A stretch of 64,000 bases of DNA, taken from the IMG/VR virus record IMGVR_UViG_3300030329_003334, positions 30,022 to 94,021 of that record; one strand, 5' to 3'. Source of the stretch: a virus. The translations under genes and the position numbers were made by a program. Shown here piece after piece: positions 2 through 51,129 of the stretch; position 1 is the first letter of the stretch; every line of letters starts with the position of its first letter. The notes beneath the pieces are model-generated. The model ran no database searches. It worked only from the letters and a program-made list of their open reading frames with translations, and was not told where the DNA came from.

Positions 2-3000
2 TTATTTGAATTTGATTCTGAAGGTAATATAAAACTAGATGAGTTTGGTAAACCTATTATTAAAGAAGATTTAGATTATAGAATTTTACAAAAAGATGTA
101 CATTATAAACAAGGTCCTAATGGAGAGAAGTTGATATTAGACGAAGATGGTTATCCGTTAGGAGAAATATTTAAGTTTAATAGTTTTGTAGGTTTGAATA
201 ATATTATAGGAATACGTTCTCATGTAAGTCCTAGAACAGGTAAGGGTTTTATTAAGAATTTAGGTATAGGTAATGCTGAGATTAAAGCTATTAATGGAGT
301 TATACAAAATACTTTAACTGATGAAATGTTACAACTTCAAGCTAATCCTGTATTTATGGCTCAAGTTTCTAAATTATGGGCATTAGCTAAAACTACTTAT
401 GCTACTAAAGAACATTTTATTATAGATTTTTTAGGTAATCAAAAAATATCTTTAGTAGAATCTCAAAATTGGTTTGCTGGTAATATAGCTGAGTTTAAGA
501 ATAAACAAGATAGTACTAAGAGAGCAAAACAAACTAATTCTCCTGGTATGAAACAAGCGGGTATATTTACTAATCCTATGTTTGGTGTTATTGTTATTAA
601 AGATTTAGTATTACCTTCTCAAGATATAGAAACAATAGCTACTACTCTTAAAGACGATATACAAAAAAGAAAGAATTATAAAGGAACTGATGCAGAATTT
701 AATATGGATAATATTATAGCAGAAAATCCTCAAAGTAGTCTTGAACGAGAAGTATATAGAATTGCTCGTCATTATTTAGCTATTAATACAGGTGATGCTC
801 AGGGTTATGTAAGCTGGGAAAGGTATAAAAGACAGCTTAAAGATAATGCTATGTGGAATGATGATATAGCATTGATTGTTAAAAAAATAGATAATGATGA
901 GTATATTACTCCTGAAGAGTTAAATGCTATTATGCAGCCTTTAAAAGGATTTTATTATAATAGATCTATTGATAAGAATACAAACAGATTAAGATCTAGA
1001 CAACTTAAATATTCTACGGTACCTTTGATTCCTCAATTAATTAAAGGCACAGATCTAGAGATTTTAGCAGATAAAATGGATGCATATGGTATAGACGAAA
1101 CTGTATTTGAATCTGCATCTAAAGTAGGTACTTTAAGTGTATTTAAACTTCATGACGAAAATGGTCGTATACTTCCTGATATATTTGAAGAGTTAGTTAT
1201 GGCAGATGAATTCCATGTAGAATTATTAGATAATAATAGATGGATGAGGCAGCAAGATGTTCCTACTAAATTAGAACAAGTTACTGGAACATTAGGTACT
1301 CAGATAAAAGATTTGATTTTTACTAATTTATCTAATGATTCTATATATAAAGTAGCATTTAGTGAAATTTCTTTTACAGGTAAAGAGTTATTACAAAAGA
1401 ATCTTGCTATAGCAGCAGCTAATATCGAAGAAGATGCTATGAATCTTTTAATGGAGATTGGGGCTGAAATAGTAGAAGATTCAACAGCAGTTGGAGGTAT
1501 ACGAGTTATATTTAAAAATAATAAGAAAGTAAGAGCTTTATTAATAAGAGAGTTAACTAAGAGAGGACTTAATGATAATTATATAAAAGCTATTTTACCT
1601 AAACCAGGTACAGATGAATTTAATTTACCTTTATTTTTCTCAGGAATGGCATCTAAATTTGAATCAGTATTACTTTCTTTATTTACAAATAATGTAACTA
1701 ATCAAAAGTTTCCAGGATTTACTTCTGTTCAATTTTCTGGAGCATTCTTTAGAACTGGTAAGAAAGCAAGCGAATCTGTTCAAGCTCTGAATGAAGAGAG
1801 AATGCAAGGAGTTGAATATATTGATGGACATGATGCAAGCCAAAGATTAAGAACTACTAGAGATTCTGAATCTGGAATTATAACAGCTGAAGTTATTGTA
1901 TCTCGTCCTAATATGTTTAATCGACCAGATGGTACTCCTATTCCTATTAATGAAATAGATCCTGAAGTATTAGAAATGATTGGGTATCGTATTCCTACTG
2001 AAGCTAAGCATTCTATGGTAGTATTTAAAGTAGTAGGATTTACTCCTGCAGCTACAGGTGATATAATTATTTTACCTGATGATATTATAGCTCAAACTGG
2101 ATCCGATTTTGATATTGATAAGATGCAAGTTATGGTATATACTTCTGAAAATGGTAAGAAGATTCACTATGATGATGATAAAAGTCCTTCGGAAAATAGT
2201 AGAGATCAGAGAAATAATGGTTTATTAGATACGTTTATGTCTGTATTAAAAAATAGATATCATTTATCAGAGATGTTAGATACAGGTAATTTTGATGATC
2301 TTAAAGAGATCAGAGAGGAGATGGATAATATTGATAATATAAAGGAAGAAACATTTGATATATCTTCATTTTCAGGACAAGATGAAATGCGTAAAAGAAA
2401 TATATCTGGTAGAATACTTAAAGGTATATCTGCTACATTTAATAAGTTTGGAGCTATTGCTCAAAATACTAAGATGGTTTTATCTGAACCTTTTATTTGG
2501 AAATATAGATTAACAGAAATAGATGAAGCATCTGGTATAGAAATTAAGAGAAATGTAGAAGATTTTAAAGCTAGATATGGTGAAGAAAATGTTAGAGTAG
2601 AAGGTGAGTTTATTATTGTTACACATGAATTAATAGGTTGGACTAGAGACAATACACATTTAAATGCAAATGGTGATTTAGTTCTTAAACATTCAGCTCA
2701 AGGTATTACTGGTGCTGTTGATATTAGTAGTGATCCTACATTTAGTTCTTTTAATGTAAAAGCTTTTACTTATCCTATGGTAGCTGCAGCTACTTTAGTA
2801 GGTATTCCTTGGAAAGATATAGCTTGGTTAACTAAACAACAGATTGTAAAAGAAGTACAAGATAAATACTATGAAGCTAGAGGTATTCTTGGGGATAATA
2901 CTCCTGTTCATCAAATAATTAGAGATATTAGAAATTCGTTTTTAAACGTATCTACTAATCCTACTTATCAAGGTAAATTATTTGCTTTATTATCTGATGA

Positions 3001-6000
3001 AAAACAAAAACAAATATTAACTTTATTAAATAGAGCTAAGAAAGGTGATATATCATGGTCAGATTACTTTAATAAAAGAGCAGAAATAATAGGTATTTCT
3101 GAAGAAGTTGTTCCTTTAAGTAAAAACGAATTGAAAGATTTATACTTAACAAGTAAAAATTTCGATAACTTAACTAAAGAAGAAAAAATAGAGTATTATA
3201 AAAAACAATTACAAGTATTAAATAATTTCGAATATTTTAGAAAAATAGGTAGTGCTGTTAGTTCTACAGTATCAATTACTAAAGCTGATACTATAGGAGC
3301 AGGACCACAAATGACTGTTACTTCTAATTTTGAACGGCAATTAGATTCTCATTTCGATAATGATGGTTCAATACAGGTTGAATTGGAAAATGGTGAATTA
3401 ATAGATGCTGCTTTAGCTTTGCATCCTTCTTATTTTGGTAGAGATGCAGAATCTGTATATCCTACTTTAGATACTGTATATAGATTCTCTAATCAATTAA
3501 GTATAAAATCTGTAGGACAACATTTTATAGAACAACATCCTAGTTTTAGAATGATACTAGATGGAGTTATGGAAACTTTAAGAGGAGATAGATTCTTTAA
3601 ATATGATGATAGAATAGAAGCGATAGTTAGAAATTGGGTAGTATCTTATCTTTTAAAAGATGCAGATATATTTAGTGATTTAAGTGATTCTGATAAAAGA
3701 GATATACTTGGAATTACTTCTAAAGAAGATAGAAATATAACATCTTTAGCTGAAGATATAGCTAGTATTCAAAAGAGATTTCCTAGTTTAGCACAATCAG
3801 ATGGTCATATATTAGCTTTTTTAAATCCTAAATTATCTGAAAAAGATAAAAAGAATAATAATGGTATAGAATTTATAGAAGTTAATGAAATACCTAAAGA
3901 TACTGTTATACAGAATCATATAAGTAGATCTCTTTTAAGAATGTATAGAGGCACTGCATTAGATGCTGATGGTAGATCTTTACCAGAAGATGTAAGAGAA
4001 GAATTACAAAGAATAGCTAAAAAGATTCTTCAATATGAATTTATAACTAGAGGATTAAACTTTGGACGTAATTCTTTAACTGAAGTTATTGATACTAATA
4101 TTAAATTGGACGAGCAATTAGGAGCGCATCTTGAAAGAAAATTACAGAGTTTTAATATGGGTAATGATCCTATGAAAACAGGTGAAGAAAATTTAAATGA
4201 ATTAATTCATAAAATTATACGAGCTAATTGGTTTAGACATGATATGGTTCCTAGAGTTAAAAGAAAAACTACTAAAGTATTACGTTGGGATAAGAAGACT
4301 AGACAATATCAAGGTAAAGTAGAAACTGTTAGAGGTACAGGTAATTGGGTTCCTAATAGAGATGGTATTATTGTAACTGAAGGCAGAAAAAAATTAGATA
4401 AAGAACCTCCTAATGTTAGAAATTCACAGTATGTATATGTTCCTATATATAAGAAAATTACTCGTGGTAAAAATAAAGGTAATTGGGTATTAGTTTCTGA
4501 TGTTTTATATATGCAATATGGAGAAGATCCTAGTACTGGAAAATTATATTGGATACCTGTGTCAAGGACTAGTCTTCCTGGTAAATTAATGGAGTTTGGT
4601 ACCAAATCTATTTTAGATACTAACGATCCATATAGAGAAGCTTTTCCTTTTTCTAACGAACAAGAGGCTATGGATTATATAGATGGTGTATTAAATGGTG
4701 ATATAGATAGACAACAAGTATTAGATGAAATAGAAGATACTCAACAAGCATCTAAACAAGGATATGGTATAACTGTTAGTGAGGCGCAAAAAAGAGCAAT
4801 AGAAATGATGGAAGATGGTGATCCTGATAAAATGAAAAAACTTATGGCTGCGTTTGAAAAAATGAGTCAAGGTGGCAAGGATAGGACTGATAAAATAATG
4901 AAGGCAATTGAAAAAGCAGATGAGAAAGATACTAATGCTCCTAAAGTTAAACAGATTAAGGCTGATCCTTCTTTTAAAATACACTCTAAATCTGGATATG
5001 CAGCTAGAACTGCGGAAAATACTAAGTCACATGCTACTATAGATTTTTCTTTTGATCCTAATGTAGGATCAGGAGGAGTAAGAGGTACTACAAAAATTAA
5101 TGTAGATAGGTTTAAACGTGAGTATATAGGTATTAGATTAGAATCAGATGGTACTATTCAAATAACTGATGAATTAGTTAAAGATATAGTTAATCAATTA
5201 AATAATGCTAATAAAGGCAAAGGAGCTGTAACTGTTAATATAGCGGGTCATGGTATAGCTAAAATGGCTAAACAAGGAGCTACTCAAAAACAATTAGATG
5301 ATTCAGTGTATAAATTAGTTAAACAAATATTAGCTCATCCTGATCTTAAGAATAAAAATATTAAGATAAATACAGGAGGACAGACAGGATTTGATGAAGC
5401 TGGTACTAAAGCAGCTATGAGATTAGGTATAGAGAATACTATTTTAGCTCCTAGAGGTTGGATGTTTAGAGATAAGGAAAATAATGATATTTCAGATGAA
5501 CATGAGTTTAAAGCTAGATTTGGTATAGAAGCACTTGCTTCTACAGTTAAAGAAAAGAAAAAAACACGTTCTATGCAACAAGAAGTAGGATTAACTAAAG
5601 TAGATTCTTTTCATAAATTTATTACAGAAGAAGGTTTTGTAAAAGTACCTCTTAAAAATTCTCAAAAAATGAAATATGATGTAAAAGGTTGGGAAGGTAT
5701 AGAGTTTTTTATAGAAACTGAAGGAAATAAAACTAGTGGTATTGTAACAGTATCTGAAGCTATAACAGGAGCTAGGGCAGTATCTGTTGAATATGGAAAA
5801 GATAAAAAGTCAAAGACTGCAAAAGAAGCAATATCTGAAGCTCGTAATCAAATGAAGGAAACAGCTAAAAAAGTTTCTTTTGATAAATTTAAAGCTACAA
5901 TAGAAAAACATATAAAGGATTATGGATTAAATCCAGCTTATAGAAAACAAGTAAAATCTGATCCAAGTAAAACAGAAAATCCTACTATGGATAAGATGTT

Positions 6001-6070
6001 AAAATTATTCGAACAACAACAGGTTGAGAAGAAGAAAAATGATGATAATTCAGAAACTAAATGTGATTAA
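2..6070 (+). CDS. Giant virion-associated DNA-dependent RNA polymerase (crAss/phi14:2 gp66-like), 5'-truncated by the window; C-terminal SLOG domain
   Basis: GYRIP (~1982) ... GSDFDIDK (~2099-2122) double-psi-barrel catalytic motif. The frame is open from base 2 (LFEFDSEG...), so the TTG start at 131 is an artefact of the window edge. Confidence 0.9.
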   Translation, partial: LFEFDSEGNIKLDEFGKPIIKEDLDYRILQKDVHYKQGPNGEKLILDEDGYPLGEIFKFNSFVGLNNIIGIRSHVSPRTGKGFIKNLGIGNAEIKAINGVIQNTLTDEMLQLQANPVFMAQVSKLWALAKTTYATKEHFIIDFLGNQKISLVESQNWFAGNIAEFKNKQDSTKRAKQTNSPGMKQAGIFTNPMFGVIVIKDLVLPSQDIETIATTLKDDIQKRKNYKGTDAEFNMDNIIAENPQSSLEREVYRIARHYLAINTGDAQGYVSWERYKRQLKDNAMWNDDIALIVKKIDNDEYITPEELNAIMQPLKGFYYNRSIDKNTNRLRSRQLKYSTVPLIPQLIKGTDLEILADKMDAYGIDETVFESASKVGTLSVFKLHDENGRILPDIFEELVMADEFHVELLDNNRWMRQQDVPTKLEQVTGTLGTQIKDLIFTNLSNDSIYKVAFSEISFTGKELLQKNLAIAAANIEEDAMNLLMEIGAEIVEDSTAVGGIRVIFKNNKKVRALLIRELTKRGLNDNYIKAILPKPGTDEFNLPLFFSGMASKFESVLLSLFTNNVTNQKFPGFTSVQFSGAFFRTGKKASESVQALNEERMQGVEYIDGHDASQRLRTTRDSESGIITAEVIVSRPNMFNRPDGTPIPINEIDPEVLEMIGYRIPTEAKHSMVVFKVVGFTPAATGDIIILPDDIIAQTGSDFDIDKMQVMVYTSENGKKIHYDDDKSPSENSRDQRNNGLLDTFMSVLKNRYHLSEMLDTGNFDDLKEIREEMDNIDNIKEETFDISSFSGQDEMRKRNISGRILKGISATFNKFGAIAQNTKMVLSEPFIWKYRLTEIDEASGIEIKRNVEDFKARYGEENVRVEGEFIIVTHELIGWTRDNTHLNANGDLVLKHSAQGITGAVDISSDPTFSSFNVKAFTYPMVAAATLVGIPWKDIAWLTKQQIVKEVQDKYYEARGILGDNTPVHQIIRDIRNSFLNVSTNPTYQGKLFALLSDEKQKQILTLLNRAKKGDISWSDYFNKRAEIIGISEEVVPLSKNELKDLYLTSKNFDNLTKEEKIEYYKKQLQVLNNFEYFRKIGSAVSSTVSITKADTIGAGPQMTVTSNFERQLDSHFDNDGSIQVELENGELIDAALALHPSYFGRDAESVYPTLDTVYRFSNQLSIKSVGQHFIEQHPSFRMILDGVMETLRGDRFFKYDDRIEAIVRNWVVSYLLKDADIFSDLSDSDKRDILGITSKEDRNITSLAEDIASIQKRFPSLAQSDGHILAFLNPKLSEKDKKNNNGIEFIEVNEIPKDTVIQNHISRSLLRMYRGTALDADGRSLPEDVREELQRIAKKILQYEFITRGLNFGRNSLTEVIDTNIKLDEQLGAHLERKLQSFNMGNDPMKTGEENLNELIHKIIRANWFRHDMVPRVKRKTTKVLRWDKKTRQYQGKVETVRGTGNWVPNRDGIIVTEGRKKLDKEPPNVRNSQYVYVPIYKKITRGKNKGNWVLVSDVLYMQYGEDPSTGKLYWIPVSRTSLPGKLMEFGTKSILDTNDPYREAFPFSNEQEAMDYIDGVLNGDIDRQQVLDEIEDTQQASKQGYGITVSEAQKRAIEMMEDGDPDKMKKLMAAFEKMSQGGKDRTDKIMKAIEKADEKDTNAPKVKQIKADPSFKIHSKSGYAARTAENTKSHATIDFSFDPNVGSGGVRGTTKINVDRFKREYIGIRLESDGTIQITDELVKDIVNQLNNANKGKGAVTVNIAGHGIAKMAKQGATQKQLDDSVYKLVKQILAHPDLKNKNIKINTGGQTGFDEAGTKAAMRLGIENTILAPRGWMFRDKENNDISDEHEFKARFGIEALASTVKEKKKTRSMQQEVGLTKVDSFHKFITEEGFVKVPLKNSQKMKYDVKGWEGIEFFIETEGNKTSGIVTVSEAITGARAVSVEYGKDKKSKTAKEAISEARNQMKETAKKVSFDKFKATIEKHIKDYGLNPAYRKQVKSDPSKTENPTMDKMLKLFEQQQVEKKKNDDNSETKCD

Positions 6071-9000: not shown

Positions 9001-10209
9001 CATGAGTATTTAATGGAAGGAATTACTTCTAGTGTAAAAGGAGAAGAATCTAATGTATTTTCTTCTAATAGTAAAGCAGGAGGATTAATGGTTATGTTTG
9101 ATATATTACAATCTCAAGATGAATTAGCTGAGCAAGCGGGAGGGCCTGAAAGATCTAAATTACATAAATTTAAGTTCTTTACAGATTCTGCTTATGCGAT
9201 GCAACATATTGGAGAACATAGTATGCAAAATATTACTATGTTAGCTATGCTTAGAAGATATAAAGTAGATCCTAGTAATGGAAAAATTTATAGAAATTCT
9301 GAAGCATATGCTAGAAAAAATGGATTATCTTATAATACTCCTGAAGAGAAAGCAGATATTCAAAAGAAATTTAAAGAGCTAGAATCTGTATACGATGTAT
9401 ATGAATTAGTAGATGGTTATACACAACTTAAAAAAGGAAGATTTATATCTGATAAAGAATGGTCTGAATTTAGACAAGAAATTATAGGTGTAAATCAATA
9501 TATGCATGGTATTTATAATAAAGAAGATGCGGGCGCCATGCAAAAATATGGTCTTGCAAGATTAGCAATACAATTTAGAAAATGGGCCCGTCCTGGATGG
9601 AACCGTAGATGGGGTAGTAAATTTGGACAATCTTATTGGAATGAAAGACGTAATATGTTAGATGAAGGTATGTATGTAACTACAGCTAAATTTACATGGC
9701 AATTATTAAAAGACTATAGAAACTTTTTTAGTAATTCTAAATTAAATTGGGATAGTCTCGATGAAACACAGAAAGCAAATGTTAAACGATCAGCTATGGA
9801 ATTATTACTTCTAATTAGTGTTATATTATTTACTCAAATGCTAAAAGGAATGGAAGAAGAAGACGATGATTTAAAAGAAAGTAAAGCATTTAATATTCTT
9901 ATGTATCAATCAGATAGATTATGGACTGAAATAGCTACTTATTCTCCTGTATACGGTTGGTTTAATGAGGCTAGTAAGTTAATGCAATCTCCTACTGCTT
10001 CTTGGAATATGGTTGAAGATGTATATAAATTAGCTTATAATACTTTTGCTTATCCATTTAGAACTGAAAAAGAAAGAATATTTAAATCTGGCGTTAATTA
10101 TGGAGATGATAAAATAAATACATATCTTAGAAAATCTGTTCCTTTATATAATCAAGTAGGTAGATGGAATAGATTAGAAAAACATAATAAATTTTATAAA
10201 CTATTCTAA
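6073..10209 (+). CDS. Large virion cargo/ejection protein with N-terminal zincin metallopeptidase motif
   Basis: DTIIHEFGH (HExxH at 6517-6531) followed by KEVLV; 1378 aa; lies directly after the RNAP as in crAss-like cargo clusters; hydrophobic segment near the C-terminus. Confidence 0.7.
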   Translation: MACRLIIKAKNGKDSKLFNDLNDIFGEEYAKNLYALANTDIFKTWLANKYESPDFSYKYDNNGEIEYRAILEFSESYDTTPISMARESSKNTTRKINLLKQTFRNVGINVSIIEDYDIVGRAQVDPATDENQAVIRLNPDKVFKDTIIHEFGHIYVDLLGEDHPLVIAGINQLKNTELWKQVEAAYPHLTPNKLAKEVLVTAIGREGAEIFDTQRDQSRFQRVLNAIFSAISRVLGLNSSNIAKRLATEMLNQNLQRNLSGKLSDYTQHSINVEEGLNQKELNKYLSNKIGNLHKQIRKFKSIAPEFSESLKDIVDEIQKADTHEQLEKLNTYISSTLGRVIQIEDDNGNVVERATGIEGRLIEVENMLDEIDRLKNAVAVKELNGKQLSQEDINRLEEDIKVKLMSVIRSLYHANVMVDSFNDISDLDDRAEYPPVIKKAIRSLQDNIGKIAKLRARSIRLGKRAFITQLKEYTSNKEILDNAENIFENNFDESGTQRWMDALADTNHSFIALVRKRVAEELDKKRLDVIRLKREWEDEVKILKQNGIKLEDFFEEVDGIKTGRFIQEYDEAEFYRLKSEMFDRYFSLMNRANALAKGTKERSELLKEAKKLIRDFYQENTQPIENWQQIVEAKKAKLSPERFEQWLKDNFYSGRGGRLYPRGKEVVEMKKEKFRNPKFDILMSDPVKKRFYEYYQRLINELTAHSNNDFLRRGFLPAVPLDQRNYIQALRDNVGWRTLQEEQEEFQEDEAKEVLVDETGKVINFIPFYYMTKLDQLDLKDINNESLTNEEIEERIKENKKIREENKRRHAERLDFNLEKTMPRFIDTALNHRAKTAMEEEVLFAREILTHTQIRKKTGSILGRGKRVIDKTFKQDMNEDRDATDDASESNILKHFDDWIQMVFYEKFEEDEGAWTKASRVLQNWASLRGIGWNVFSGINNKMYGFMQTHIEAAGSQFFGYSEYRKASSDYYANIHEYLMEGITSSVKGEESNVFSSNSKAGGLMVMFDILQSQDELAEQAGGPERSKLHKFKFFTDSAYAMQHIGEHSMQNITMLAMLRRYKVDPSNGKIYRNSEAYARKNGLSYNTPEEKADIQKKFKELESVYDVYELVDGYTQLKKGRFISDKEWSEFRQEIIGVNQYMHGIYNKEDAGAMQKYGLARLAIQFRKWARPGWNRRWGSKFGQSYWNERRNMLDEGMYVTTAKFTWQLLKDYRNFFSNSKLNWDSLDETQKANVKRSAMELLLLISVILFTQMLKGMEEEDDDLKESKAFNILMYQSDRLWTEIATYSPVYGWFNEASKLMQSPTASWNMVEDVYKLAYNTFAYPFRTEKERIFKSGVNYGDDKINTYLRKSVPLYNQVGRWNRLEKHNKFYKLF

Positions 10210-15480: not shown

Positions 15481-15498
15481 AATATTATAGTTTTGAAA

Positions 15499-15577
15499 GA
15501 AACAGAAAAAGAGGAGTTTCGTCCTCTAGGAATGAACTTAATCGTCCTTTAGGCCTCTGTTATCTCCTCAGTTTCTG
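15499..15577 (-). promoter_or_regulatory. Structured intercistronic element: terminator-like hairpin with an alternative pairing
   Basis: On the minus strand GAGGA-CGAAAC-TCCTC-TTTTT; an upstream GAGGAG can also pair with CTCCTC; tandem CCTARAGGACGA repeats. Confidence 0.55.
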
Positions 15578-15594
15578 AATCAAGGTGGATCTTT

Positions 15595-19934: not shown

Positions 19935-19947
19935 AATTTTAATTTTA

Positions 19948-20061
19948 AAGGGCGAGGTCGGCCAAGTATTTATGGTGGCAGTCTCCCTATCATATAAACC
20001 ACATTTGACATTTTTAAAGCTAGCTCGTTAGACTCTAAAATACTCAACCTGTTTGGCCCTT
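19948..20061 (-). promoter_or_regulatory. Structured intercistronic RNA element
   Basis: Alternative closings AAGGGC/GCCCTT and GGCCAA/TTGGCC; inner AGTATTT/AAATACT stem. Confidence 0.45.
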
Positions 20062-21238
20062 ATGTTAATATTTCATTTAATGTTTCTATCCATTCACAGT
20101 TATAATCATTTTGAGTTCTCTTTCGTACCCATTTAACTTCCTGAGTACCACGTACATAGAGATTTATATACAAAGCTTGTTTACCTTCTATCATTCTTAA
20201 TACTCTACCTCTTCTTTGTATATTATCTAATGCTTTAGAACTACCTGCAGCACATATTCCAAGAGAACATTCTGGTACATTTAAACCAGCATTTAATGCT
20301 TTAACAGAACTTATTAATCTTACTTTAGTTCTTCCATCACCGAATTCTTTGAGAGCTCGTTTCTTGTCTTTAAGTTTCATTTTAGAATGAAAAGTTATAC
20401 ACTCTTCTCCTAAAATATCTTGTAGATTCTCCGCAAAGTTAATACTTTGACTAAAAACAAGACCCTTTCTGTTAGGAAATTTATTAACAATTTTCTTGAT
20501 TAATTCTACTTTATTTACAGCATTATAGCAAATATTTTTCCTTTTTTGCATTGCCATATAAAATATATTTGCCCATTTAGCTTCTTCTTTATCTTTAGAA
20601 TTCTTTAATTTTGTAGCATTCTCAAAAGCTACAAATCTACCTCCTAATTCATTAGTTGCTTTATTAAATAATGTATCAAATCTCTTATATTCTTTAACTT
20701 CTTCTTCGGTAAAACTTACTCCTAAATTATATACTTTATATGGTGATACTAATTCTAGATCTAATGCATCTAAAGTATCTGTTTTTTTAATTGTAGGCGC
20801 AAATCCTTTTAGATATTCTTTATATTCATCATTTTCTGGTTCTGTAGCTGTTAAACAATATATATTATCAAAACTATTATTTTCGTATAAGTTTCTATAT
20901 TCATAAGATAAAGTAGTATGTACTTCATCTACTATTAATATAGAACAGGTATAATTTTCCCATTTGTATACAGTTTGTATACATTGTATATCTATTCGAT
21001 CTTTATATTTAGATAATTTCCATTTTTTTAATTCATTTGGCCATTCATTATCTCTTAAATTTTCAGTAGGAACAACTATTAAAGCCTTATTATATATATC
21101 TTTAGATAAAATATGATCAATTGCCATTAATCCCATTTTAGTTTTACCTATACCTGTAGCTGCTATAGAAGTTCCTTTACAATTATTATTTATCCACGCA
21201 TCTATATGTTCTTTTTGTTCTTTATCTTTATTATTCAT
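20060..21238 (-). CDS. Superfamily 2 DNA/RNA helicase
   Basis: ATGIGKT; IVDEVH; LTAT; LNAGLNVP; QRRGRVLR. Confidence 0.88.
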   Translation of the reverse strand: MNNKDKEQKEHIDAWINNNCKGTSIAATGIGKTKMGLMAIDHILSKDIYNKALIVVPTENLRDNEWPNELKKWKLSKYKDRIDIQCIQTVYKWENYTCSILIVDEVHTTLSYEYRNLYENNSFDNIYCLTATEPENDEYKEYLKGFAPTIKKTDTLDALDLELVSPYKVYNLGVSFTEEEVKEYKRFDTLFNKATNELGGRFVAFENATKLKNSKDKEEAKWANIFYMAMQKRKNICYNAVNKVELIKKIVNKFPNRKGLVFSQSINFAENLQDILGEECITFHSKMKLKDKKRALKEFGDGRTKVRLISSVKALNAGLNVPECSLGICAAGSSKALDNIQRRGRVLRMIEGKQALYINLYVRGTQEVKWVRKRTQNDYNCEWIETLNEILT

Positions 21239-21486
21239 ATTAAAATATTTATAATTTTTCTAAATCTTGCCATTACTTGTGTAAAAGTTTTGGAAGATTT
21301 ATTATAATACATTGGACTTAGAGGTACAAACTGATGCTTTTCCATTGTTTCATTTACTCCCTTTTGTAATCTTTTTTTATTAGGACCTTCAGCTAAAATA
21401 ACTTCTTCTATATCAGGCATAAACCTATCGTGAGGCCCTCTGTCATTACCAAAAAGCTGTTTTTTCTTTTTTGTTTGTTTTTTCAT
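21235..21486 (-). CDS. Hypothetical protein
   Basis: 83-aa ORF overlapping the helicase start. Confidence 0.55.
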   Translation of the reverse strand: MKKQTKKKKQLFGNDRGPHDRFMPDIEEVILAEGPNKKRLQKGVNETMEKHQFVPLSPMYYNKSSKTFTQVMARFRKIINILI

Positions 21487-21503
21487 GTTGTGTGTAATTT
21501 AAT

Positions 21504-21707
21504 AAAAGAGCGGGTAAGCGCTCTTTTGGTACTACGACTGATAAAACAAGTATTAGTTCTAGCTTACCCTAGAACTGTAAAAAGGAAAGAAAGAGAAATT
21601 GCATAACTGTATGTATATTACTAACGCAATATTTCATATACTATCTAGTTTTCTCTCTTTCTAACCTATTAATTAAAGGCAGAAATCATGACATAACGAC
21701 CTTTAAT
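21504..21707 (-). ncRNA. Cluster of four intercistronic hairpins including a kissing-loop pair
   Basis: AAAAGAGCG-GGTAAG-CGCTCTTTT; AGTTCTAG-CTTACC-CTAGAACT; AGAAAGAGA/TCTCTTTCT; ATTAAAGG/CCTTTAAT. Confidence 0.6.
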
Positions 21708-21951
21708 CATTTTTATCTTCTTTAAATACTACAGTTTTAAATCTATCATCTTCTGGATTATTATCTGTATATTTATTTTTCCATTTATCTACCTCTGCAA
21801 AATATAGTTTTCTGAATTTATCTAATTCTTCTCGCGTATCTTTAATTTCTATTGATACTACAGAAAACGTTAACAACGATCCAAGTATTGCTCCTCCTGC
21901 TATTGATATAGCTATTACCAGTAAAGGTACAAATATATTTGTATATTCCAT
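21703..21951 (-). CDS. Small membrane protein
   Basis: N-terminal hydrophobic helix followed by a charged tail. Confidence 0.6.
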   Translation of the reverse strand: MEYTNIFVPLLVIAISIAGGAILGSLLTFSVVSIEIKDTREELDKFRKLYFAEVDKWKNKYTDNNPEDDRFKTVVFKEDKND

Positions 21952-22196
21952 TATTTCTTAAATTTAATATGTTTTATTTTTATTTTACTTATACAAGATT
22001 CAATTTTAATTATATCTATGTATCCATTTTTATCATAAGGAACATAGTCTAATCCTGTAATTTTATTAAACTTCTTCATATCATTATCTATTAGATTTAA
22101 TATATACTTTTGAAAATCTATCATTTTCTGAAGTTCTTCTCTGAATTGTTTTTTAGTTATTTTATTCTTTTTTAACTTTTTAATTGTTTCTTTCAT
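21951..22196 (-). CDS. Hypothetical basic protein
   Basis: Translationally coupled to its neighbour. Confidence 0.55.
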   Translation of the reverse strand: MKETIKKLKKNKITKKQFREELQKMIDFQKYILNLIDNDMKKFNKITGLDYVPYDKNGYIDIIKIESCISKIKIKHIKFKK

Positions 22197-22218
22197 AATT
22201 TTAAATATTAAATAAAAA

Positions 22219-22345
22219 AGAAGAGAGTCCAGCTGACCTGAGTAACGTTGTTGTACCCTTCAGGAATAAACCACTATAGTGTTTCGTTTAATTTATTCTC
22301 TGGGGAATCTATTTCCAGTACTTCTGAGGTATGAAACTCTCTTCT
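22219..22345 (-). ncRNA. Multibranch intercistronic RNA element downstream of polA
   Basis: 10-bp closing stem AGAAGAGAGT/ACTCTCTTCT followed by a U-tract on the minus strand; inner stems CCTGA/TCAGG and GAATAAA/TTTATTC. Confidence 0.55.
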
Positions 22346-22356
22346 ATTTATATTAT

Positions 22357-24255
22357 TTATTTACACCATTTATCTGATATATTTTCATCTACAACCATAT
22401 CAACGTCTTTGCAGATAACTTTACCTGCTGCTAACATTAATTTTTCTTGCTGACTTACCCAATGATCTACATAATCTTCTCTTACTTCACAAGTTATTTC
22501 ATCATGTACTTGTGAAACTATTCTAACTTTATCATGTAAATTATTCATTATAATATAATCAGCAATCCAGGCTAATGCTTGTTTTATCATATCAGCTCCT
22601 GATCCTTGAATCGGTGTATTTTTAGATGCTCGTTCAATTTCGCCTAATCTTTGAAATTTATGAGAATTTGGCATAGTGTCTAAATCTTTATGATCTTCAA
22701 ACCATCTAATCCTTCTATAAGGCTTAAATGTTTTAATATATCCATATTTTTTCCCATAATTACCTAATGAATTAAGAAACTTTTTAATTTTAGGCAAAGA
22801 CTCAAAATATTTATCAATAAAATGTTTAGCATCTGTCTGTGGTATATCTAAAGTATCTGCTAATTTCATATATGACATGCCATAAGCTAAACCAAAATTA
22901 ATAGTTTTGGCTACATCTCTGTAAGATTTACCTCTTAAAAAATCAGGTTTATTTTTAACTTTATTTATATCTATATCAAATACTAAAGCAGCTACTTTAC
23001 CGTGAACATCTTCTCCTTTATTAAATGCAGTTAACCACATAGGGTCCTTCGATCCCTCAGCAATTAATCTTAACTCCTGGCCTGAATAATCCATAGTAAC
23101 TAATTTCCATCCTTCTTCAGCATGAAAACAGTTTCTATATTTATCATCAGCTGGTATATTTTGCATATTAGGATAACTCTGATATGAATATTTACCTTTT
23201 TGCCCAGAAGACACACGACCTGTATTTAATATTTGCCAAAATACAGTATGTATTTTTTGACTACTTTTATTTAAATATTTAATAAATTCTTTACCATATG
23301 TAGTTCTTAATTTAGCTTTCTTTCTATAATCTATTATAGTTTTAATAAGAATATGCTGCTTCTGCCTTTTAAATAATTCTAACATATTAGTGTTCTGTAA
23401 ACTAGGATCCAGGGTTTGTAATACTTTAGTTACCTGTGACGGGGACGACCATTTAATACCTACCTCCCTTCCTTTTTTACCAAACATATCTAATTGAATA
23501 CCAGGTAGTTTGAATTTTTCTAACTCTTTTGTAGATAGTACTATATTATCTAGTTCAGTCTCTAATTCTTGTGAAGTATCTTCGGCATTCTTTGCTAGCT
23601 CCAGCCACCTGTCTTTATCAAAACACATACCATTCCATTCTATTTCAGCAAATGCTCTTAAGGCCCCATTTTCTAAATCTAAAACGTTCTTCAGATCTAA
23701 ATTATTAATTGATTCCATTTGTTTCTCTCTTATAGGTATCAAATATTCTACATCTTTAGCACCATATATAATTTGATTTTCTGTAAATGGTTCACCTTTT
23801 TTTATTTTACTAAACTCTCCTCTAGTATCCTTTTCCATTTCTACTCCCATGTACCTAAGCAATACTTTATCTAATCCATATCCATATCCTCTTTTTCCAC
23901 AGTTTAAGACTACCTCTGCTAACATAGTATCATATATACCATTCAATCTAAATCCAAAACTACTTAAAATAAATTTATAATCAAATTTTAAATTATGGCC
24001 TAATTTGATCCATCTATCGTCTTCAAATAAAGGGCGTAATATACTTATATCAATATCTCTAGTATCTATAACGAACTGCACATTCTCATCTCCAATTTGA
24101 AGCATAATAACTTTATTTTTATGCCAGTCTACTCCATCAGTTTCAGTATCTATAGCTACAAAAGTTTTATAATTAAAATAATCTATTACATCATTTAATG
24201 TAGCTGTTTCTAAATTATTAAAAACTGTTTGTTTATTACTTATATATTTAATCAT
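22357..24255 (-). CDS. polA: Family A DNA polymerase with 3'-5' exonuclease
   Basis: IDTETDG and HNLKFD (exonuclease); TGRVSS...PNMQNIP; DYSGQELR (motif A); KTINFGLAYG (motif B); QVHDE (motif C). Confidence 0.95.
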   Translation of the reverse strand: MIKYISNKQTVFNNLETATLNDVIDYFNYKTFVAIDTETDGVDWHKNKVIMLQIGDENVQFVIDTRDIDISILRPLFEDDRWIKLGHNLKFDYKFILSSFGFRLNGIYDTMLAEVVLNCGKRGYGYGLDKVLLRYMGVEMEKDTRGEFSKIKKGEPFTENQIIYGAKDVEYLIPIREKQMESINNLDLKNVLDLENGALRAFAEIEWNGMCFDKDRWLELAKNAEDTSQELETELDNIVLSTKELEKFKLPGIQLDMFGKKGREVGIKWSSPSQVTKVLQTLDPSLQNTNMLELFKRQKQHILIKTIIDYRKKAKLRTTYGKEFIKYLNKSSQKIHTVFWQILNTGRVSSGQKGKYSYQSYPNMQNIPADDKYRNCFHAEEGWKLVTMDYSGQELRLIAEGSKDPMWLTAFNKGEDVHGKVAALVFDIDINKVKNKPDFLRGKSYRDVAKTINFGLAYGMSYMKLADTLDIPQTDAKHFIDKYFESLPKIKKFLNSLGNYGKKYGYIKTFKPYRRIRWFEDHKDLDTMPNSHKFQRLGEIERASKNTPIQGSGADMIKQALAWIADYIIMNNLHDKVRIVSQVHDEITCEVREDYVDHWVSQQEKLMLAAGKVICKDVDMVVDENISDKWCK

Positions 24256-24808: not shown

Positions 24809-24844
24809 AATAATATAATTTATTGGTTAATACTTAAAAAAATA

Positions 24845-24946
24845 CCTCAACTCTAATAGGATCCATGATCTAGATAAAAACGGAAACTATAAAAATCTAG
24901 GTATAGTTCTTCAATGTATAAACTATACAATCCTATTAAAGTGAGG
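24845..24946 (-). ncRNA. Three-way-junction intercistronic RNA element
   Basis: Closing stems TAATAGGAT/ATCCTATTA and CCTCA/TGAGG; inner hairpins CTAGAT/ATCTAG and GTATAGTT/AACTATAC. Confidence 0.55.
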
Positions 24947-24957
24947 GTGAAATATTT

Positions 24958-25993: not shown

Positions 25994-26020
25994 AATTATT
26001 TGGTTTTAGTTAATAAAAAA

Positions 26021-26070
26021 AGAACGGAGCTACAAATTGGCTAGTCGTAATACTTGTAATACTCCGTTCT
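26021..26070 (-). terminator. Long hairpin with U-tract (terminator or processing site)
   Basis: AGAACGGAG/CTCCGTTCT 9-bp stem, inner TACAA/TTGTA; A-run on + reads as U-run on -. Confidence 0.6.
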
Positions 26071-26098
26071 CTCTCCTCGTACAACACACAACAAGAAA

Positions 26099-29564: not shown

Positions 29565-29831
29565 TTACCTATAAGCTGGGCAATTTTGCGCTGCTTGCCA
29601 ACTAAATCCTCCACAAGAAGATTGAGTTGACATACAAGATGAGAATAAAAACATACATATAATAGCTATTGCTATTGATGTAAGTATTCCATATCCTAAT
29701 CCTTTTTCTATTCTCTTGTGTTTTATATCTCTATCTATTCTTTCATAGTTAGCCCTCATTACTTCTGGATCTGATTTATAAGGACTAATCTTCTGTCCTT
29801 TACTATTTACCATATATTTTATTTCTGCCAT
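29565..29831 (-). CDS. Small membrane/lipoprotein-like protein
   Basis: TM segment ending FLFSSC, then ...SSCGG...NCPAYR. Confidence 0.6.
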   Translation of the reverse strand: MAEIKYMVNSKGQKISPYKSDPEVMRANYERIDRDIKHKRIEKGLGYGILTSIAIAIICMFLFSSCMSTQSSCGGFSWQAAQNCPAYR

Positions 29832-29938
29832 GATTTCTAATTTTTTAATTAATAACTATCTCTTTCTTTTGAAGAAGGTAATAGAACTATTGCTAGTCCT
29901 ATCACCACTAATATTTTGAATAACATTATAAATTCCCT

Positions 29939-30088
29939 TTACAACTTAGTAGGGATAGAATGCATTCCTATACCTATTATACAAAATGGTAAAATGATAA
30001 CTAAACCATTATGACTTTCATAACCAATACCAAATGCAAATAGTTTTTCAAAACTTGCTTTAAGAACGAACTTTTTTCTAATTTCCAT
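29939..30088 (-). CDS. Small protein (49 aa; not in ORF track)
   Basis: MEIRKKFVLKASFEKLFAFGIGY...IILPFCIIGIG...*; starts in an AGAAATCATG context. Confidence 0.6.
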   Translation of the reverse strand: MEIRKKFVLKASFEKLFAFGIGYESHNGLVIILPFCIIGIGMHSIPTKL

Positions 30089-30124
30089 GATTTCTAATTT
30101 AAAGTTAATACTGTTAATTGTGTG

Positions 30125-30721
30125 TTAATACCTGTAATGTCCTGTTATTTTCCAATCAAATAAACAATCTTCAATTACTTGTCCATAACCTATGTTATGT
30201 ATCACTTTGTATTCAGAGTGATAGTTGCTTGGTACATTTACTACTATACCAATATGATTTAATCCTCCTCCTAAATCCCAGGTTACAATATCACCTGGTA
30301 AATATTTAGTTGGATTAGGTATTGTCGGCAATGATTCTCCATATCTTTCAAATAATGTTTGAAGATTTGGTACTCTTCTATGATCTATATTTGGATCAAC
30401 TTTATCATCTGTTAATTGATAACAATTTAGACCTATTTCTCTAGTGTACTTAATATCTTCATGTATTAATTGTTGTAAATCAATACCTAATTTCCTATAA
30501 GCTCTTATAACAACGTCAGTACATACACCTATGTTATCTGGTACATCACCCATTGGATAATCTATTGCATAATAAGAACCATCATACTTTATAGTCCAAT
30601 CTTCCAATGATTTCGCTGCTACTGCTAATTTATCATAAAAGCTAGGATTGTCTTGTGCATTTATATTTAAAAATATAAATAAACAATAACTAATAATCAA
30701 TAAAATTCTATTCGTTTTCAT
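30125..30721 (-). CDS. DUF1287 (YijF-like) exported protein, papain/NlpC-P60-like Cys-His fold
   Basis: YDGSY..IDYPMGDVP..GVCTDVVIRAYR..GIDLQ; DPNIDHRRVPNL; PGDIVTW; HIGIV; HNIG; signal peptide. Confidence 0.88.
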   Translation of the reverse strand: MKTNRILLIISYCLFIFLNINAQDNPSFYDKLAVAAKSLEDWTIKYDGSYYAIDYPMGDVPDNIGVCTDVVIRAYRKLGIDLQQLIHEDIKYTREIGLNCYQLTDDKVDPNIDHRRVPNLQTLFERYGESLPTIPNPTKYLPGDIVTWDLGGGLNHIGIVVNVPSNYHSEYKVIHNIGYGQVIEDCLFDWKITGHYRY

Positions 30722-30869
30722 GATTTCTTTTGTGTTTATCCTTCCTGTTATAAGCCTTCTTACTTTTATGTACTCTAGATGAGGGAGGCCTTATACCTAA
30801 TTCTAGATCAACTCTTCTTCTTATTGCTCTTTTTCTCTTTATACTTAGTCTTTTATTTTCTCGTGCCAT
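30708..30869 (-). CDS. Basic 53-aa peptide with ArfA-like motif (not in ORF track)
   Basis: MARENKRLSIKRKRAIRRRVDLELGIRPPSSRVHKSKKAYNRKDKHKRNHENE*; AGAAATCATG start context. Confidence 0.65.
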   Translation of the reverse strand: MARENKRLSIKRKRAIRRRVDLELGIRPPSSRVHKSKKAYNRKDKHKRNHENE

Positions 30870-30880
30870 GATTTCTTTTT

Positions 30881-43018: not shown

Positions 43019-45451
43019 ATGGGATATTCGTTTCCACAACAGAAGCTTACTAGAAAGCAAAAATCTAAAAATAATTTTGCGTGGGGTAAGCGTGTATTAG
43101 ATGAGATAGATGGCTATAATTCAAAAGGATTTGATGAAAGATCTAACAATCAAAGAAAAAGAGTTAACTATAAATTATTTAATGGGCAAATAGATTTAGA
43201 TGATTATGAGTATGTATGTAAGCCATATGGTATGCAAGTAAATGGTGAATTACCTGCTGAATTAAGACATTATGATATTACTACACCTAAGTTACGAGTT
43301 TTATTTGGAGAAGAAATTAAACGTCCTTTTAATTTTAAAGTAGTTTCAATTAATCAAGAAGCTGTTACTGAAAGAGAGCGTGCTCAATATAAAATGATTG
43401 CTGAATATGTTAAAGAGCAAATCATGACTAGAGTAAATGCAATGCTAGCGGAAGAAGCTGAAAAGATGCAAGCAGGTGTTCCACCTGAATCTGCGACTCC
43501 TGAGATGCAACAACAAATGCAGCAACAATTAGACGGTATGAAAGCTTCTATGACACCCCCAGAAATTGAAGAATACATGAAGAGAGATTATGCGGGATCT
43601 AGAGAAATACAAGGACAGCAAATACTTAATTATTTACTTAAAAAAGAAAATGTAAAAGAAAAATTTATTAAAGGGTGGAAACATGCTTTAATCTCTGGCG
43701 AAGAGATTTATTGGACTGGTATTGTTAATGGAGAACCTATTGTAAGAACTGTTAATCCTTTATACTTTGATTATGATATGGATCCTGATTTAGACTATAT
43801 ACAAGATGGTCAATGGGCTAAATACATAATGAGAATGACTCCAGGATCTGTAATTGATAATTTTGGAGAATTTTTAACAGAAAGACAACTTAAAGACCTG
43901 TATGATGAGACAGGTATTACAGGGTCTGATCATGTAATAAATGAAACATTTGGTGAGTTTTCATATGATTATGGTAATGATTTCGATCCTGATAATTTTG
44001 GTGATTTTAGTCATGGTACTGGAGGATCTGGAGCTTATATTAAAGTAGTACATTGTGAATGGAGATCTTTAAGAAAAATTGGATTTCTAACTTATATGGA
44101 TGAGAAAGGAGTTCCTCAAGAAACTATAGTAGATGATACTTATGTATTAGATGAGCCTAAAGGAGATATAGCTTTAAGATGGGAATGGATTCCAGAAATA
44201 TGGGAAGGAACTAAAATAGAAGATGATATATATGTTAATATACGTCCTAAACCAAATCAATTTAAAGATCTAGATAATTTATATGAATGTAAATTAGGAT
44301 ATACTGGAGTAGCGTATAATAATTTAAATGCTGAATCTGTATCTGTAATTGATAGAATTAAACCTTATCAGTATTTATATAATATTATTATGTATAGATT
44401 AGAATTAGATCTAGCTTCTGATAAAGGTAAAAAGTTTTTAGCTGATATAAATCAAATTCCTAGTGATTTAGGAATGGATATGGAAAAGTGGTTATATTAC
44501 TTTGATGCTATGGGAATAGCCTGGGTTAATCCTCATGAAGAAGGTAATAGAGGGAAACCTCATTCATTTAATCAATGGCAAGCAGTCGATCTATCTATGG
44601 CTCAAACTATCAATCAAAAAATACAATTATTAGAATATTTAGAAATACAAAGTGGAGAAATTGCAGGTGTTACTAAACAACGAGAGGGGCAAATTGGTCC
44701 TAGAGAAGGATTAGGAACATCTCAACAAGCTATTGTACAATCATCTCATATTACAGAAGATTTATTTAATACTCATAGTGAAGTTAAAAAACAAGTATTA
44801 ACATCTTTAATAGAAACAGCAAAAGTAGCATGGGGAGATGGTAAGTCTAAGAAAATGCAATATGTTCTTGATGATATGAGTGTTGCTATGTTTACAATAG
44901 AACCAGAGATATTTAATAACTCTTCTTATAACGTCTTCGTATCTGATTCTGCTAAAGACCAAGAAACATTCATGGTCCTTAAACAGCTAGCACAAGCTGC
45001 ACTTCAAAATCAAAGAGCAGAACTTTCTGATGTTATTAAAATGTTCTCTACTGATTCAACGGCTGAATTGAAAGCTATTTTAGAAAAAGCTGAAGACAAA
45101 CGTAGAGCCGAAGAACAGCAAGCTAGACAAGAGCAAGCTCAATCTCAAGAACGTATAGCACAAGGACAGCAAGAACAAAAAGATAAAGAAATGATGCTAG
45201 ATAAATATAAAGTAGATGAAGATAATGCTACTAAATTAGAAATAGCTAGGATGAAAGAAGATGGTACTGCTAAAGCATTAGATATGAATAGAAATAAAAT
45301 ACCTGATGTTCTTGAAGTTGCTAAGTTTAAGAAAGAAAGTGAAAATGCTAAAGAAAAGATTAAACTTGAAGAAAAGAAACTTGATTTAAAATCTCGTGAA
45401 CTAGATATTAAAGCTAGAGAATCTAGAAAAAAAGCTAAAGAAAGAAAATAG
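43019..45451 (+). CDS. Portal protein
   Basis: FPQQKL N-terminus; GEEIKRPF; KPYQYLYNI; GVTKQREGQI; C-terminal coiled coil; follows terL. Confidence 0.9.
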   Translation: MGYSFPQQKLTRKQKSKNNFAWGKRVLDEIDGYNSKGFDERSNNQRKRVNYKLFNGQIDLDDYEYVCKPYGMQVNGELPAELRHYDITTPKLRVLFGEEIKRPFNFKVVSINQEAVTERERAQYKMIAEYVKEQIMTRVNAMLAEEAEKMQAGVPPESATPEMQQQMQQQLDGMKASMTPPEIEEYMKRDYAGSREIQGQQILNYLLKKENVKEKFIKGWKHALISGEEIYWTGIVNGEPIVRTVNPLYFDYDMDPDLDYIQDGQWAKYIMRMTPGSVIDNFGEFLTERQLKDLYDETGITGSDHVINETFGEFSYDYGNDFDPDNFGDFSHGTGGSGAYIKVVHCEWRSLRKIGFLTYMDEKGVPQETIVDDTYVLDEPKGDIALRWEWIPEIWEGTKIEDDIYVNIRPKPNQFKDLDNLYECKLGYTGVAYNNLNAESVSVIDRIKPYQYLYNIIMYRLELDLASDKGKKFLADINQIPSDLGMDMEKWLYYFDAMGIAWVNPHEEGNRGKPHSFNQWQAVDLSMAQTINQKIQLLEYLEIQSGEIAGVTKQREGQIGPREGLGTSQQAIVQSSHITEDLFNTHSEVKKQVLTSLIETAKVAWGDGKSKKMQYVLDDMSVAMFTIEPEIFNNSSYNVFVSDSAKDQETFMVLKQLAQAALQNQRAELSDVIKMFSTDSTAELKAILEKAEDKRRAEEQQARQEQAQSQERIAQGQQEQKDKEMMLDKYKVDEDNATKLEIARMKEDGTAKALDMNRNKIPDVLEVAKFKKESENAKEKIKLEEKKLDLKSRELDIKARESRKKAKERK

Positions 45452-49686: not shown

Positions 49687-51129
49687 ATGGCAAGAGCACA
49701 ATCAAAATTGGTAACAATGACTCGTCCTTGGCATGCTAATTTTACTGAGATGAACCACTTAGGTAATGCTTTTATGGCTGAACCTCATAAGTTTGATTCA
49801 GTATTAACTAGAGTATTTACTGCTTCAAGATTAGCAGATAATCCTTTAACAGCTATGACTAAAGGTATGGGTAAAACTTCCGAGATAGAGTCTTTTGAGT
49901 GGGAATGGGAATTGATGGGATCATCTTCTCGTCCTTTAGTAGTAATTGAAAACTTTGAGTCAGGAGCTTCAGCTGCTGCAGGTAATACCACTAATCCTGG
50001 TATTGCTGGTACTGAGTTCAGACTAAAAGTTGACGAAGACTGGTGGAAGCCTGGAGACGTTGTTACTCCAGACAAGAAGTATCTTTGTAGAGTACAAAGA
50101 GAGCCTATTGCAGATGGAGATGGGTATATATATTTCATGAGATTAGTAACTGATGATAATAGTTTATTTTTAGACCCAGACTACATGAAGGTAGGCACAC
50201 AATGGACTAAATATTTCTCTATTTATGAAGAAGGTGGCGATCAAAGTGGTTCTACTACTTACGCGATGCCTATGAAACTAAAATCTTCTTTATCTACTTT
50301 AAGAAAAGAATATTCCGTTACAGGTGATGCTGCTAATCAAGCATTAGTAGTTGCATTAATGGACGCAGAAGGTAAAGTATACAAAGACTATAAATGGTTA
50401 AAGTATGCTGAAGCTGAATATTGGATTCAATGGCACAAGGAAAAAGAGAGATCTCTATGGTATGGAAGATCTAACTCTACTGTTCCTGGAGCTAATGGTA
50501 GAATGGCAAGAACAGGTCCTGGAGTTCAGGAATTGTTAGAAGATTCTCATATCCATTATTATTCTACACTAACTGAAAATTTAATCCGTGAGTATTTATT
50601 GGATATTTTCTTTGGTAGAGTAGATATGGCTAATAGAAATATTGTAGCCTTTACAGGTGAATATGGTATGTTAGCATTCCATCAAGCTATGATGAATGCG
50701 TCTGCTCCTTTCTTAACTACTGATAGTAAGTTTATTGGAGGAAGCGGAAGTAATCTAGAGTTTGGAGGACAGTTCGTTAAATATAATGGACCTAATGGTA
50801 TTTCTTTAACATTAAGACACAATCCTGTGTATGATGATAGAGAAATTAATTTAAAAATGCACTCAAGCCTACAAGTTCCTGTAGAATCAATGAGATTTAC
50901 TTTCCTTGATTTTGGAGGAGGTGATGGTATGGGTAACATTAAATATGTTCATAAGAAAAATGGTTATAAACTAGGATATGTTTCTGGTTTACAAACTCCT
51001 TATGGACCAAATCAAGGTGGATTAATGAGTAACGCTAAAGATTCGTATACTATGATCGTTCATGATCAGTGTGGTATTCAGATTGATGACGTAACTCGTT
51101 GTGGAGAATTAATTCTTCAAGAAAATTAA
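49687..51129 (+). CDS. Major capsid protein (HK97 fold, crAss-type)
   Basis: TEMNHL; EWEWEL; EKERSLWYG; TGPGVQE; FTGEYG; FGGQFVKY; HNPVYDD; DVTRCGEL. Confidence 0.88.
   Translation: MARAQSKLVTMTRPWHANFTEMNHLGNAFMAEPHKFDSVLTRVFTASRLADNPLTAMTKGMGKTSEIESFEWEWELMGSSSRPLVVIENFESGASAAAGNTTNPGIAGTEFRLKVDEDWWKPGDVVTPDKKYLCRVQREPIADGDGYIYFMRLVTDDNSLFLDPDYMKVGTQWTKYFSIYEEGGDQSGSTTYAMPMKLKSSLSTLRKEYSVTGDAANQALVVALMDAEGKVYKDYKWLKYAEAEYWIQWHKEKERSLWYGRSNSTVPGANGRMARTGPGVQELLEDSHIHYYSTLTENLIREYLLDIFFGRVDMANRNIVAFTGEYGMLAFHQAMMNASAPFLTTDSKFIGGSGSNLEFGGQFVKYNGPNGISLTLRHNPVYDDREINLKMHSSLQVPVESMRFTFLDFGGGDGMGNIKYVHKKNGYKLGYVSGLQTPYGPNQGGLMSNAKDSYTMIVHDQCGIQIDDVTRCGELILQEN

Follow-up and report, generated by a model that had tools for sequence, protein, structure and literature searches.

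Why do two neighboring hairpins within one intercistronic spacer of a phage replication operon carry loops that are perfect complements of each other? The locus lies in a window of 64,000 nt (positions 30,022 to 94,021) of the IMG/VR record IMGVR_UViG_3300030329_003334, and all coordinates below are those of the window unless stated otherwise. The source record is a 94,021-bp virus genome with direct terminal repeats and 30% G+C. Its major capsid protein shares 45% identity with the counterpart from Flavobacterium phage FpV4, and its polymerase and helicase match only crAss-like or other Bacteroidota phages, at 26–32% identity. Owing to these resemblances, the host is probably a member of the marine Bacteroidota, and the absence of Shine–Dalgarno sequences fits such a host. 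A 1979-aa ORF (131–6070) matches the giant virion-protein family phrog_16227, and the product of the capsid gene (49687–51129) matches phrog_11589 as well as FpV4. Together with the terminal repeats, these matches mark a crAss-like or Fipvunavirus-like marine phage.

The complementary loops are found in a spacer of 216 nt (21487–21702) inside a minus-strand replication operon. In the direction of transcription, the genes around the spacer are arranged as follows:

22357–24255, minus strand: DNA polymerase A gene, upstream of the site
Between the polymerase gene and the 82-aa ORF, minus strand: 81-aa ORF
21703–21951, minus strand: 82-aa ORF, directly 5' of the spacer
21235–21486, minus strand: 83-aa ORF, directly 3' of the spacer and conserved in metagenomes
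20060–21238, minus strand: helicase gene, following the 83-aa ORF

Read on the plus strand, the first hairpin is AAAAGAGCG-ggtaag-CGCTCTTTT (21504–21527; 9-bp stem, loop at 21513–21518) and the second is AGTTCTAG-cttacc-CTAGAACT (21555–21576; 8-bp stem, loop at 21563–21568). The two are separated by 27 nt, and their 6-nt loops are perfect complements. The match can be extended to the 8-mer GGGTAAGC at 21512–21519, whose complement occupies 21562–21569; this extension adds little, because its two outer pairs coincide with the G-C pairs that close the stems. A first-pass annotation of the sequence had described both perfect hairpins, their spacing, their complementary loops, and the 8-mer extension exactly as they stand in the sequence. 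It had also placed a terminator-like hairpin upstream of the helicase genes, and this location is correct, since 17 nt separate that hairpin from the ATG of the 83-aa ORF, with the helicase gene next. The orientation had to be revised: the genes lie on the minus strand, and in the sense RNA the GGUAAG hairpin (H2) is the 5' member of the pair, whereas the terminator-like CUUACC hairpin (H1) is the 3' member. From 5' to 3', the sense RNA of the spacer comprises H0, a large hairpin, H2, a linker, and H1, with a short leader between H1 and the next gene:

21672–21707, minus strand: H0, the first hairpin of the spacer, with a loop of ~20 nt; its 5' arm overlaps the stop codon of the 82-aa ORF
21584–21667, minus strand: large variable hairpin, in which a purine-rich arm, AGAAAGAGAGAAAA, faces UUUCUCUUUCUUU
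21555–21576, minus strand: H2, 8 bp, sense loop GGUAAG (21563–21568)
21528–21554, minus strand: linker, 27 nt, U-rich, unpaired or weakly paired in the folds
21504–21527, minus strand: H1, 9 bp, terminator-like, sense loop CUUACC (21513–21518)
21487–21503, minus strand: leader from H1 to the ATG of the 83-aa ORF, CA-rich (..ACACACAAC), without a Shine–Dalgarno sequence

The H1–H2 element covers 73 nt, and its two loops are 44 nt apart in one transcript. Whichever strand of the 216-nt spacer is folded, the MFE and centroid structures contain both hairpins with their loops unpaired, and the fold of the spacer is better than that of shuffled sequences (z = −3.1 and −3.7). The predicted energies of the two hairpins are −9.4 and −9.9 kcal/mol, the latter being that of H1, and the six-pair duplex between the loops is predicted at −5.7 kcal/mol in the window and at −4.0 kcal/mol in the related contig L009 described below. 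Given these values, a kissing contact would contribute its energy on top of that of the stems, which could stay intact. An 8-bp contact (−12.4 kcal/mol) would come at the cost of opening both closing pairs. Fully paired loops of 6–7 nt are sterically possible and stable, as in TAR–TAR*-type complexes, and a linker of 27 nt easily spans a stack of ~23 bp. The spacer is present in the genome as a single copy, which led us to reject a repeated or mobile element, and it contains no tRNA or tmRNA.

The chance expectation was derived from every perfect hairpin in the complete 94-kb genome, with the loops compared all against all; neighbors no more than 100 nt apart with at least 6 complementary loop bases were counted as pairs. 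The number of such neighbor pairs expected is 0.003 for stems of at least 8 bp, 0.01 for stems of at least 7 bp, and 0.13 for stems of at least 6 bp. One was seen, namely H1/H2. A laxer scan, which allowed one G·U pair and loops of up to 12 nt, returned a few other matches of 6–7 nt (~0.3–0.6% of neighbor pairs). These matches involve long AT-rich loops of weak hairpins, mostly in coding sequence, and none of them spans a whole loop. It is unlikely that the complementarity of the H1 and H2 loops arose by chance, and this result taken alone is not overwhelming. No other convincing pair of complementary loops was found in this genome or in the other viral and metagenome loci compared, and the gaps within the replication block of FpV4 hold no comparable hairpin pair. 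A third occurrence of GGGTAAGC in the window forms the loop of a weak, wobble-rich hairpin at 43078–43096 on the plus strand, inside a plus-strand gene. This loop is likewise complementary to that of H1, probably by chance, as 0.6 copies of the 8-mer are expected.

Related sequences were sought to establish how the element has evolved. Queries of IMG/VR with the helicase, the 83-aa protein, the 82-aa protein, and an alignment of the 83-aa protein returned only relatives at the ~60% level. In seven of these, with ~60% helicase identity, one small ORF is all that separates the polymerase from the helicase and the whole spacer is missing, so it is dispensable. Exact and gapped DNA patterns gave chance matches only in IMG/VR and GTDB genomes, and GenBank phages yielded neither a DNA match nor a match to the 83-aa protein. 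The latter has a few metagenomic homologs, and about 10 further contigs encode them. A scan of metagenomes identified two contigs, L009 and L010; L010 is identical to L009 and starts inside the 83-aa gene, and the comparison of spacers is therefore one between two independent sequences, the window and L009. Three other contigs (L021, L023, and L024) were dismissed as relatives because they proved unrelated by tblastx. One of them, L021, a viral contig of 31% G+C that shares no genes with this phage, carries TAGGGTAAGC ... GCTTACCCTA at its positions 9529–9596, a 10-bp long-range inverted repeat around ~48 nt.

The helicase encoded by L009 is 88% identical to that of the window at the amino acid level, with 72% identity at fourfold-degenerate sites, and the small flanking proteins are 50–68% identical. 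Other parts of the operon have been remodeled between the two. The 125-nt structured spacer that follows the helicase gene in the window (19935–20059; −27.6 kcal/mol) is replaced in L009 by an unstructured one of 57 nt (2159–2215 of that contig), which indicates that spacers are not conserved by default in these phages. The 81-aa ORF and a 160-nt structured spacer after the polymerase gene, both within 21951–22356, are absent from L009, in which the polymerase stop codon is followed within ~30 nt by a homolog of the 82-aa ORF.

The spacer of L009 is 211 nt long and repeats the four-hairpin arrangement. In the window as in L009, one transcript contains two stable hairpins whose unpaired loops are complementary, and all 23 pairs proposed for H2, H1, and the loop–loop helix form in both. 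In L009, H2 has an 11-bp stem in which one G-C pair is replaced by A-U, a compensatory change, and one C-G pair by U·G, and its loop is identical at 6/6 positions. H1 displays one compensatory change (C-G to U-A) and one change from G-C to G·U, and its loop reads CUUACU. The helix between the loops consequently retains five invariant pairs, and the sixth passes from G-C to G·U as CUUACC becomes CUUACU; in this comparison of two sequences only, no loop pair has changed on both sides. H0 is identical at 33 of 36 positions, its loop of ~20 nt is unaltered, and its changes (U·G to U-A, G-C to G·U, and U-A to U·G) keep pairing on the sense strand. Taken over H0, H1, H2, and the loop helix, six one-sided changes pair on the sense strand only and produce A·C mismatches on the other; six transitions that all favor the sense strand would have a probability of about (1/2)^6. 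Because every one of them pairs on the sense strand alone, the structures are formed in RNA, by the sense transcript.

In terminators, the loop sequence is normally free to change. Here, the loops are identical at 11 of 12 positions and the stems at 28 of 34, compared with 12 of 30 alignment columns in the linker, 35 of 84 in the large hairpin, and 13 of 28 in the leader. The large hairpin of L009 sits in the same place and is shorter, with an unrelated sequence (GGGGG/CCCCC). The leader conserves CACACAACATG and is 11 nt longer in L009, where H1 ends 28 nt before the ATG. If the loops had changed at the rate of the linker, joint retention of pairing-competent loops would have a probability of ~1e-4; at the rate of the fourfold-degenerate sites of the helicase gene it would be ~0.04, and a retention of ~4% is not negligible. 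The loop of H1 considered alone, with 5/6 positions kept, is not significant. On this comparative evidence, the hairpins and selection on their loops are supported. The large hairpins of both sequences also contain open frames of 23 codons, counted from stop to stop, with hydrophobic tails (21569–21640 on the minus strand of the window and 573–644 of L009). We regard these small ORFs as spurious, since their sequences are dissimilar and the U-rich arm probably generates such frames incidentally.

The 3' member of the pair is a hairpin of the intrinsic-terminator type, and we infer that termination occurs there. Its 9-bp stem contains four G-C pairs and constitutes a stable G+C-containing stem-loop, an A tract precedes it, and UUUUAUU runs through and beyond its 3' arm. 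Within this U tract, UUUU lies inside the 3' arm and AUUAAAUU follows; in L009, seven U follow the stem. A consensus terminator scan omits H1, whose GC core is 5 bp, because four of its U lie inside the stem. H2, for its part, receives a terminator-like score on the minus strand. Among the minus-strand gaps between 15481 and 31703, most end in a long closing stem and a U tract located 15–35 nt before the next ATG, for example those at 15481–15594, 22197–22356, 24809–24957, and 25994–26098. The leftward operon is punctuated by terminator-like folds, and H1 is accordingly one of a set of terminator-like intercistronic elements. The H1/H2 element is not promoter-proximal, as it follows a gene and two other hairpins, and the minus strand of 21487–21702 contains no TAnnTTTG, the −7 box of Bacteroidota.

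The simplest reading of the complementary loops, and a plausible one, would be that they engage in a kissing contact. We consider the chances about evenly balanced that such an intramolecular contact forms and has a cis effect on termination or stability. The 216-nt spacer would then represent a conserved cis-acting multi-hairpin RNA in the sense transcript of the replication operon. H2 would fold first, and its GGUAAG loop would dock by six Watson–Crick pairs onto the CUUACC loop of H1 as the latter emerges. The resulting intramolecular kissing complex may lock the stems of H1 and H2 into one stacked unit. The likely effect would be to set how much transcription, or how much intact mRNA, passes from the polymerase cistrons into those of the 83-aa ORF and the helicase, and possible routes include an altered folding speed of the terminator hairpin or a nuclease-resistant 3' end. 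Neither stem has to open for the loops to pair, and the contact would therefore act on terminator folding kinetics or 3'-end stability, with no choice between mutually exclusive helices.

The first-pass annotation had gone further and proposed a tertiary RNA switch. Of that proposal, the comparison supports the sense-strand hairpins, which carry compensatory changes, and the retention of their loops. The term switch is unsupported: no promoter motif turned up, the window and L009 yielded neither an effector nor an aptamer nor a conserved alternative pairing, and in Rfam every match to the spacer of the window and to L009 fell far below the gathering score. A conserved antiterminator was considered and rejected: in the window, AAAGAG in the 5' arm of H1 is a potential partner for the large hairpin's pyrimidine arm, but L009 is without the sequence of that arm.

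Several explanations would dispense with a kissing contact. H2 and H1 could be independent hairpins, either tandem terminators or stabilizers of 3' ends, with a coincidental complementarity or with an H2 loop that is conserved for another reason; the top of H2 (UAGGGUAAGCUA), for instance, could be a protein site comparable to lambda boxB. Such independence is consistent with the terminator-like score of H2 on the minus strand, with the 72% identity of the helicase fourfold sites, with the non-significant retention of the H1 loop by itself (5/6), with the few chance loop matches of 6–7 nt in the laxer scan, and with the lack of a double change in the loop helix. However, only 0.003–0.13 neighbor pairs of this strength would be expected, and both loops have been kept while the linker and neighboring segments are ~40% identical, the sole change in a loop preserving its pairing. 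We consider independent hairpins rather unlikely on balance. A clearly less probable alternative is that the spacer is a trans-acting small RNA of ~200 nt that ends at H1, in which the loop of H0 (containing CAUGAUUUCU) would serve as an antisense seed against AGAAAUCAUG at early-gene starts and the H2–H1 contact would be mere architecture. The loop of H0 is indeed identical over ~20 nt in L009, and CAUGAUUUCU is the exact complement of AGAAAUCAUG at 29829–29838, 30086–30095, 30719–30728, and 30867–30876, the start codons of four early ORFs, with AGAAATCATG exact at four early-gene starts. The combination of a conserved loop, a variable hairpin, a U-rich stretch, and a terminator also resembles bacterial small RNAs, which we count in favor of this alternative. 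Nevertheless, many genes here share AGAAAT[ACT]ATG as a common start context, so the match may not be specific; a promoter motif is absent from the spacer and from the sequence ahead of it, with no TAnnTTTG on the minus strand of 21487–21702; and a spacer inside an operon is transcribed anyway.

The same letters might instead act as a signal in the DNA, an explanation that we hold to be very improbable. In that case, the GGTAAG-loop hairpin would be present once per strand, or GGGTAAGC would form an inverted repeat, and the element would serve as a replication origin, as a signal for priming, or as the target of a dimeric DNA-binding protein. Its location between the polymerase and helicase genes is in keeping with such a role, and with one GGTAAG hairpin on each strand, priming would proceed divergently. 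However, the cumulative GC skew runs straight through 21.5 kb without an inflection at the site, its only turn coinciding with the strand switch near 32 kb, on which ground we reject a replication origin. The antisense hairpins of L009 carry A·C mismatches and its second motif becomes AGTAAG, and a half-site in duplex DNA needs no local, differently sequenced, and compensated palindromes.

Covariance models excluded the guanidine-IV riboswitch, the cobalamin riboswitch, and pRNA. The gene context likewise excludes the two riboswitches, as the downstream genes are the 83-aa ORF and the helicase and not exporters or B12 genes. A phi29-type pRNA was rejected on the grounds that Rfam gave no match and that the genome measures 94 kb, has direct terminal repeats, and carries crAss-like genes. 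The nearest published systems are the guanidine-IV riboswitch and the L5–L13 contact of corrinoid riboswitches, with the pLS20 attenuator and OxyS–fhlA also close. In the guanidine-IV riboswitch (mepA motif), two hairpins are proposed to kiss through their loops, and this contact determines whether an intrinsic terminator is active (PMC11611296, PMC7736828). The element described here shares with it two hairpins with complementary loops in one transcript. It differs in that the partner is the loop of the terminator itself, and neither a conserved ligand pocket nor an alternative stem was found. In the corrinoid (cobalamin) riboswitch, the L5–L13 kissing loop shifts terminator formation, which was proved by mutants that disrupt and restore the pairing (PMC10327014). 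That contact is similarly intramolecular and joins an upstream hairpin to the hairpin of the expression platform, but it consists of 3–4 pairs and a bulge and belongs to a large ligand-bound aptamer, whereas here six perfect pairs would connect two plain hairpins without an aptamer.

Complementarity to a terminator is also known from the zipper-type attenuator cATT of pLS20, in which a sequence 5' of a long hairpin complements an intrinsic terminator located downstream, just ahead of a long operon's first gene (PMC13401043). The complementarity of cATT concerns stems and creates a mutually exclusive antiterminator; that of H1 and H2 is between loops and compatible with both hairpins. Kissing through nucleotides exposed in a terminator loop is seen in OxyS–fhlA, as discussed in PMC11979758. 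In OxyS–fhlA, as in ColE1 RNA I/RNA II and TAR–TAR*, the contact is made between two molecules, whereas the two loops described here belong to one transcript. The H1/H2 element thus differs from the guanidine-IV, corrinoid, pLS20, and OxyS–fhlA systems in that it would involve the terminator's own loop and six perfect pairs between two plain hairpins, lacks an aptamer, and is intercistronic.

More tentatively, and with some doubt on our part, the element may exemplify, in an intercistronic position, a so far undescribed class of phage RNAs that could be widespread in Bacteroidota phages. If such a class exists, the tip of an upstream hairpin would dock on the tip of an intrinsic terminator and thereby gate read-through. 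This gate would set the ratio of the polymerase to the helicase cistrons, and the invariant top of H2 could provide a handle for a phage or host factor by which the gate is opened or closed. The control of transcription in crAss-like phages of Bacteroidota is poorly known, and intrinsic terminators are usually viewed as a stem and a U tract with an irrelevant loop. If the contact proposed here is real, a selected terminator-loop contact would constitute a simple tuner of termination or of mRNA 3'-end stability, possibly one that operates without a ligand.
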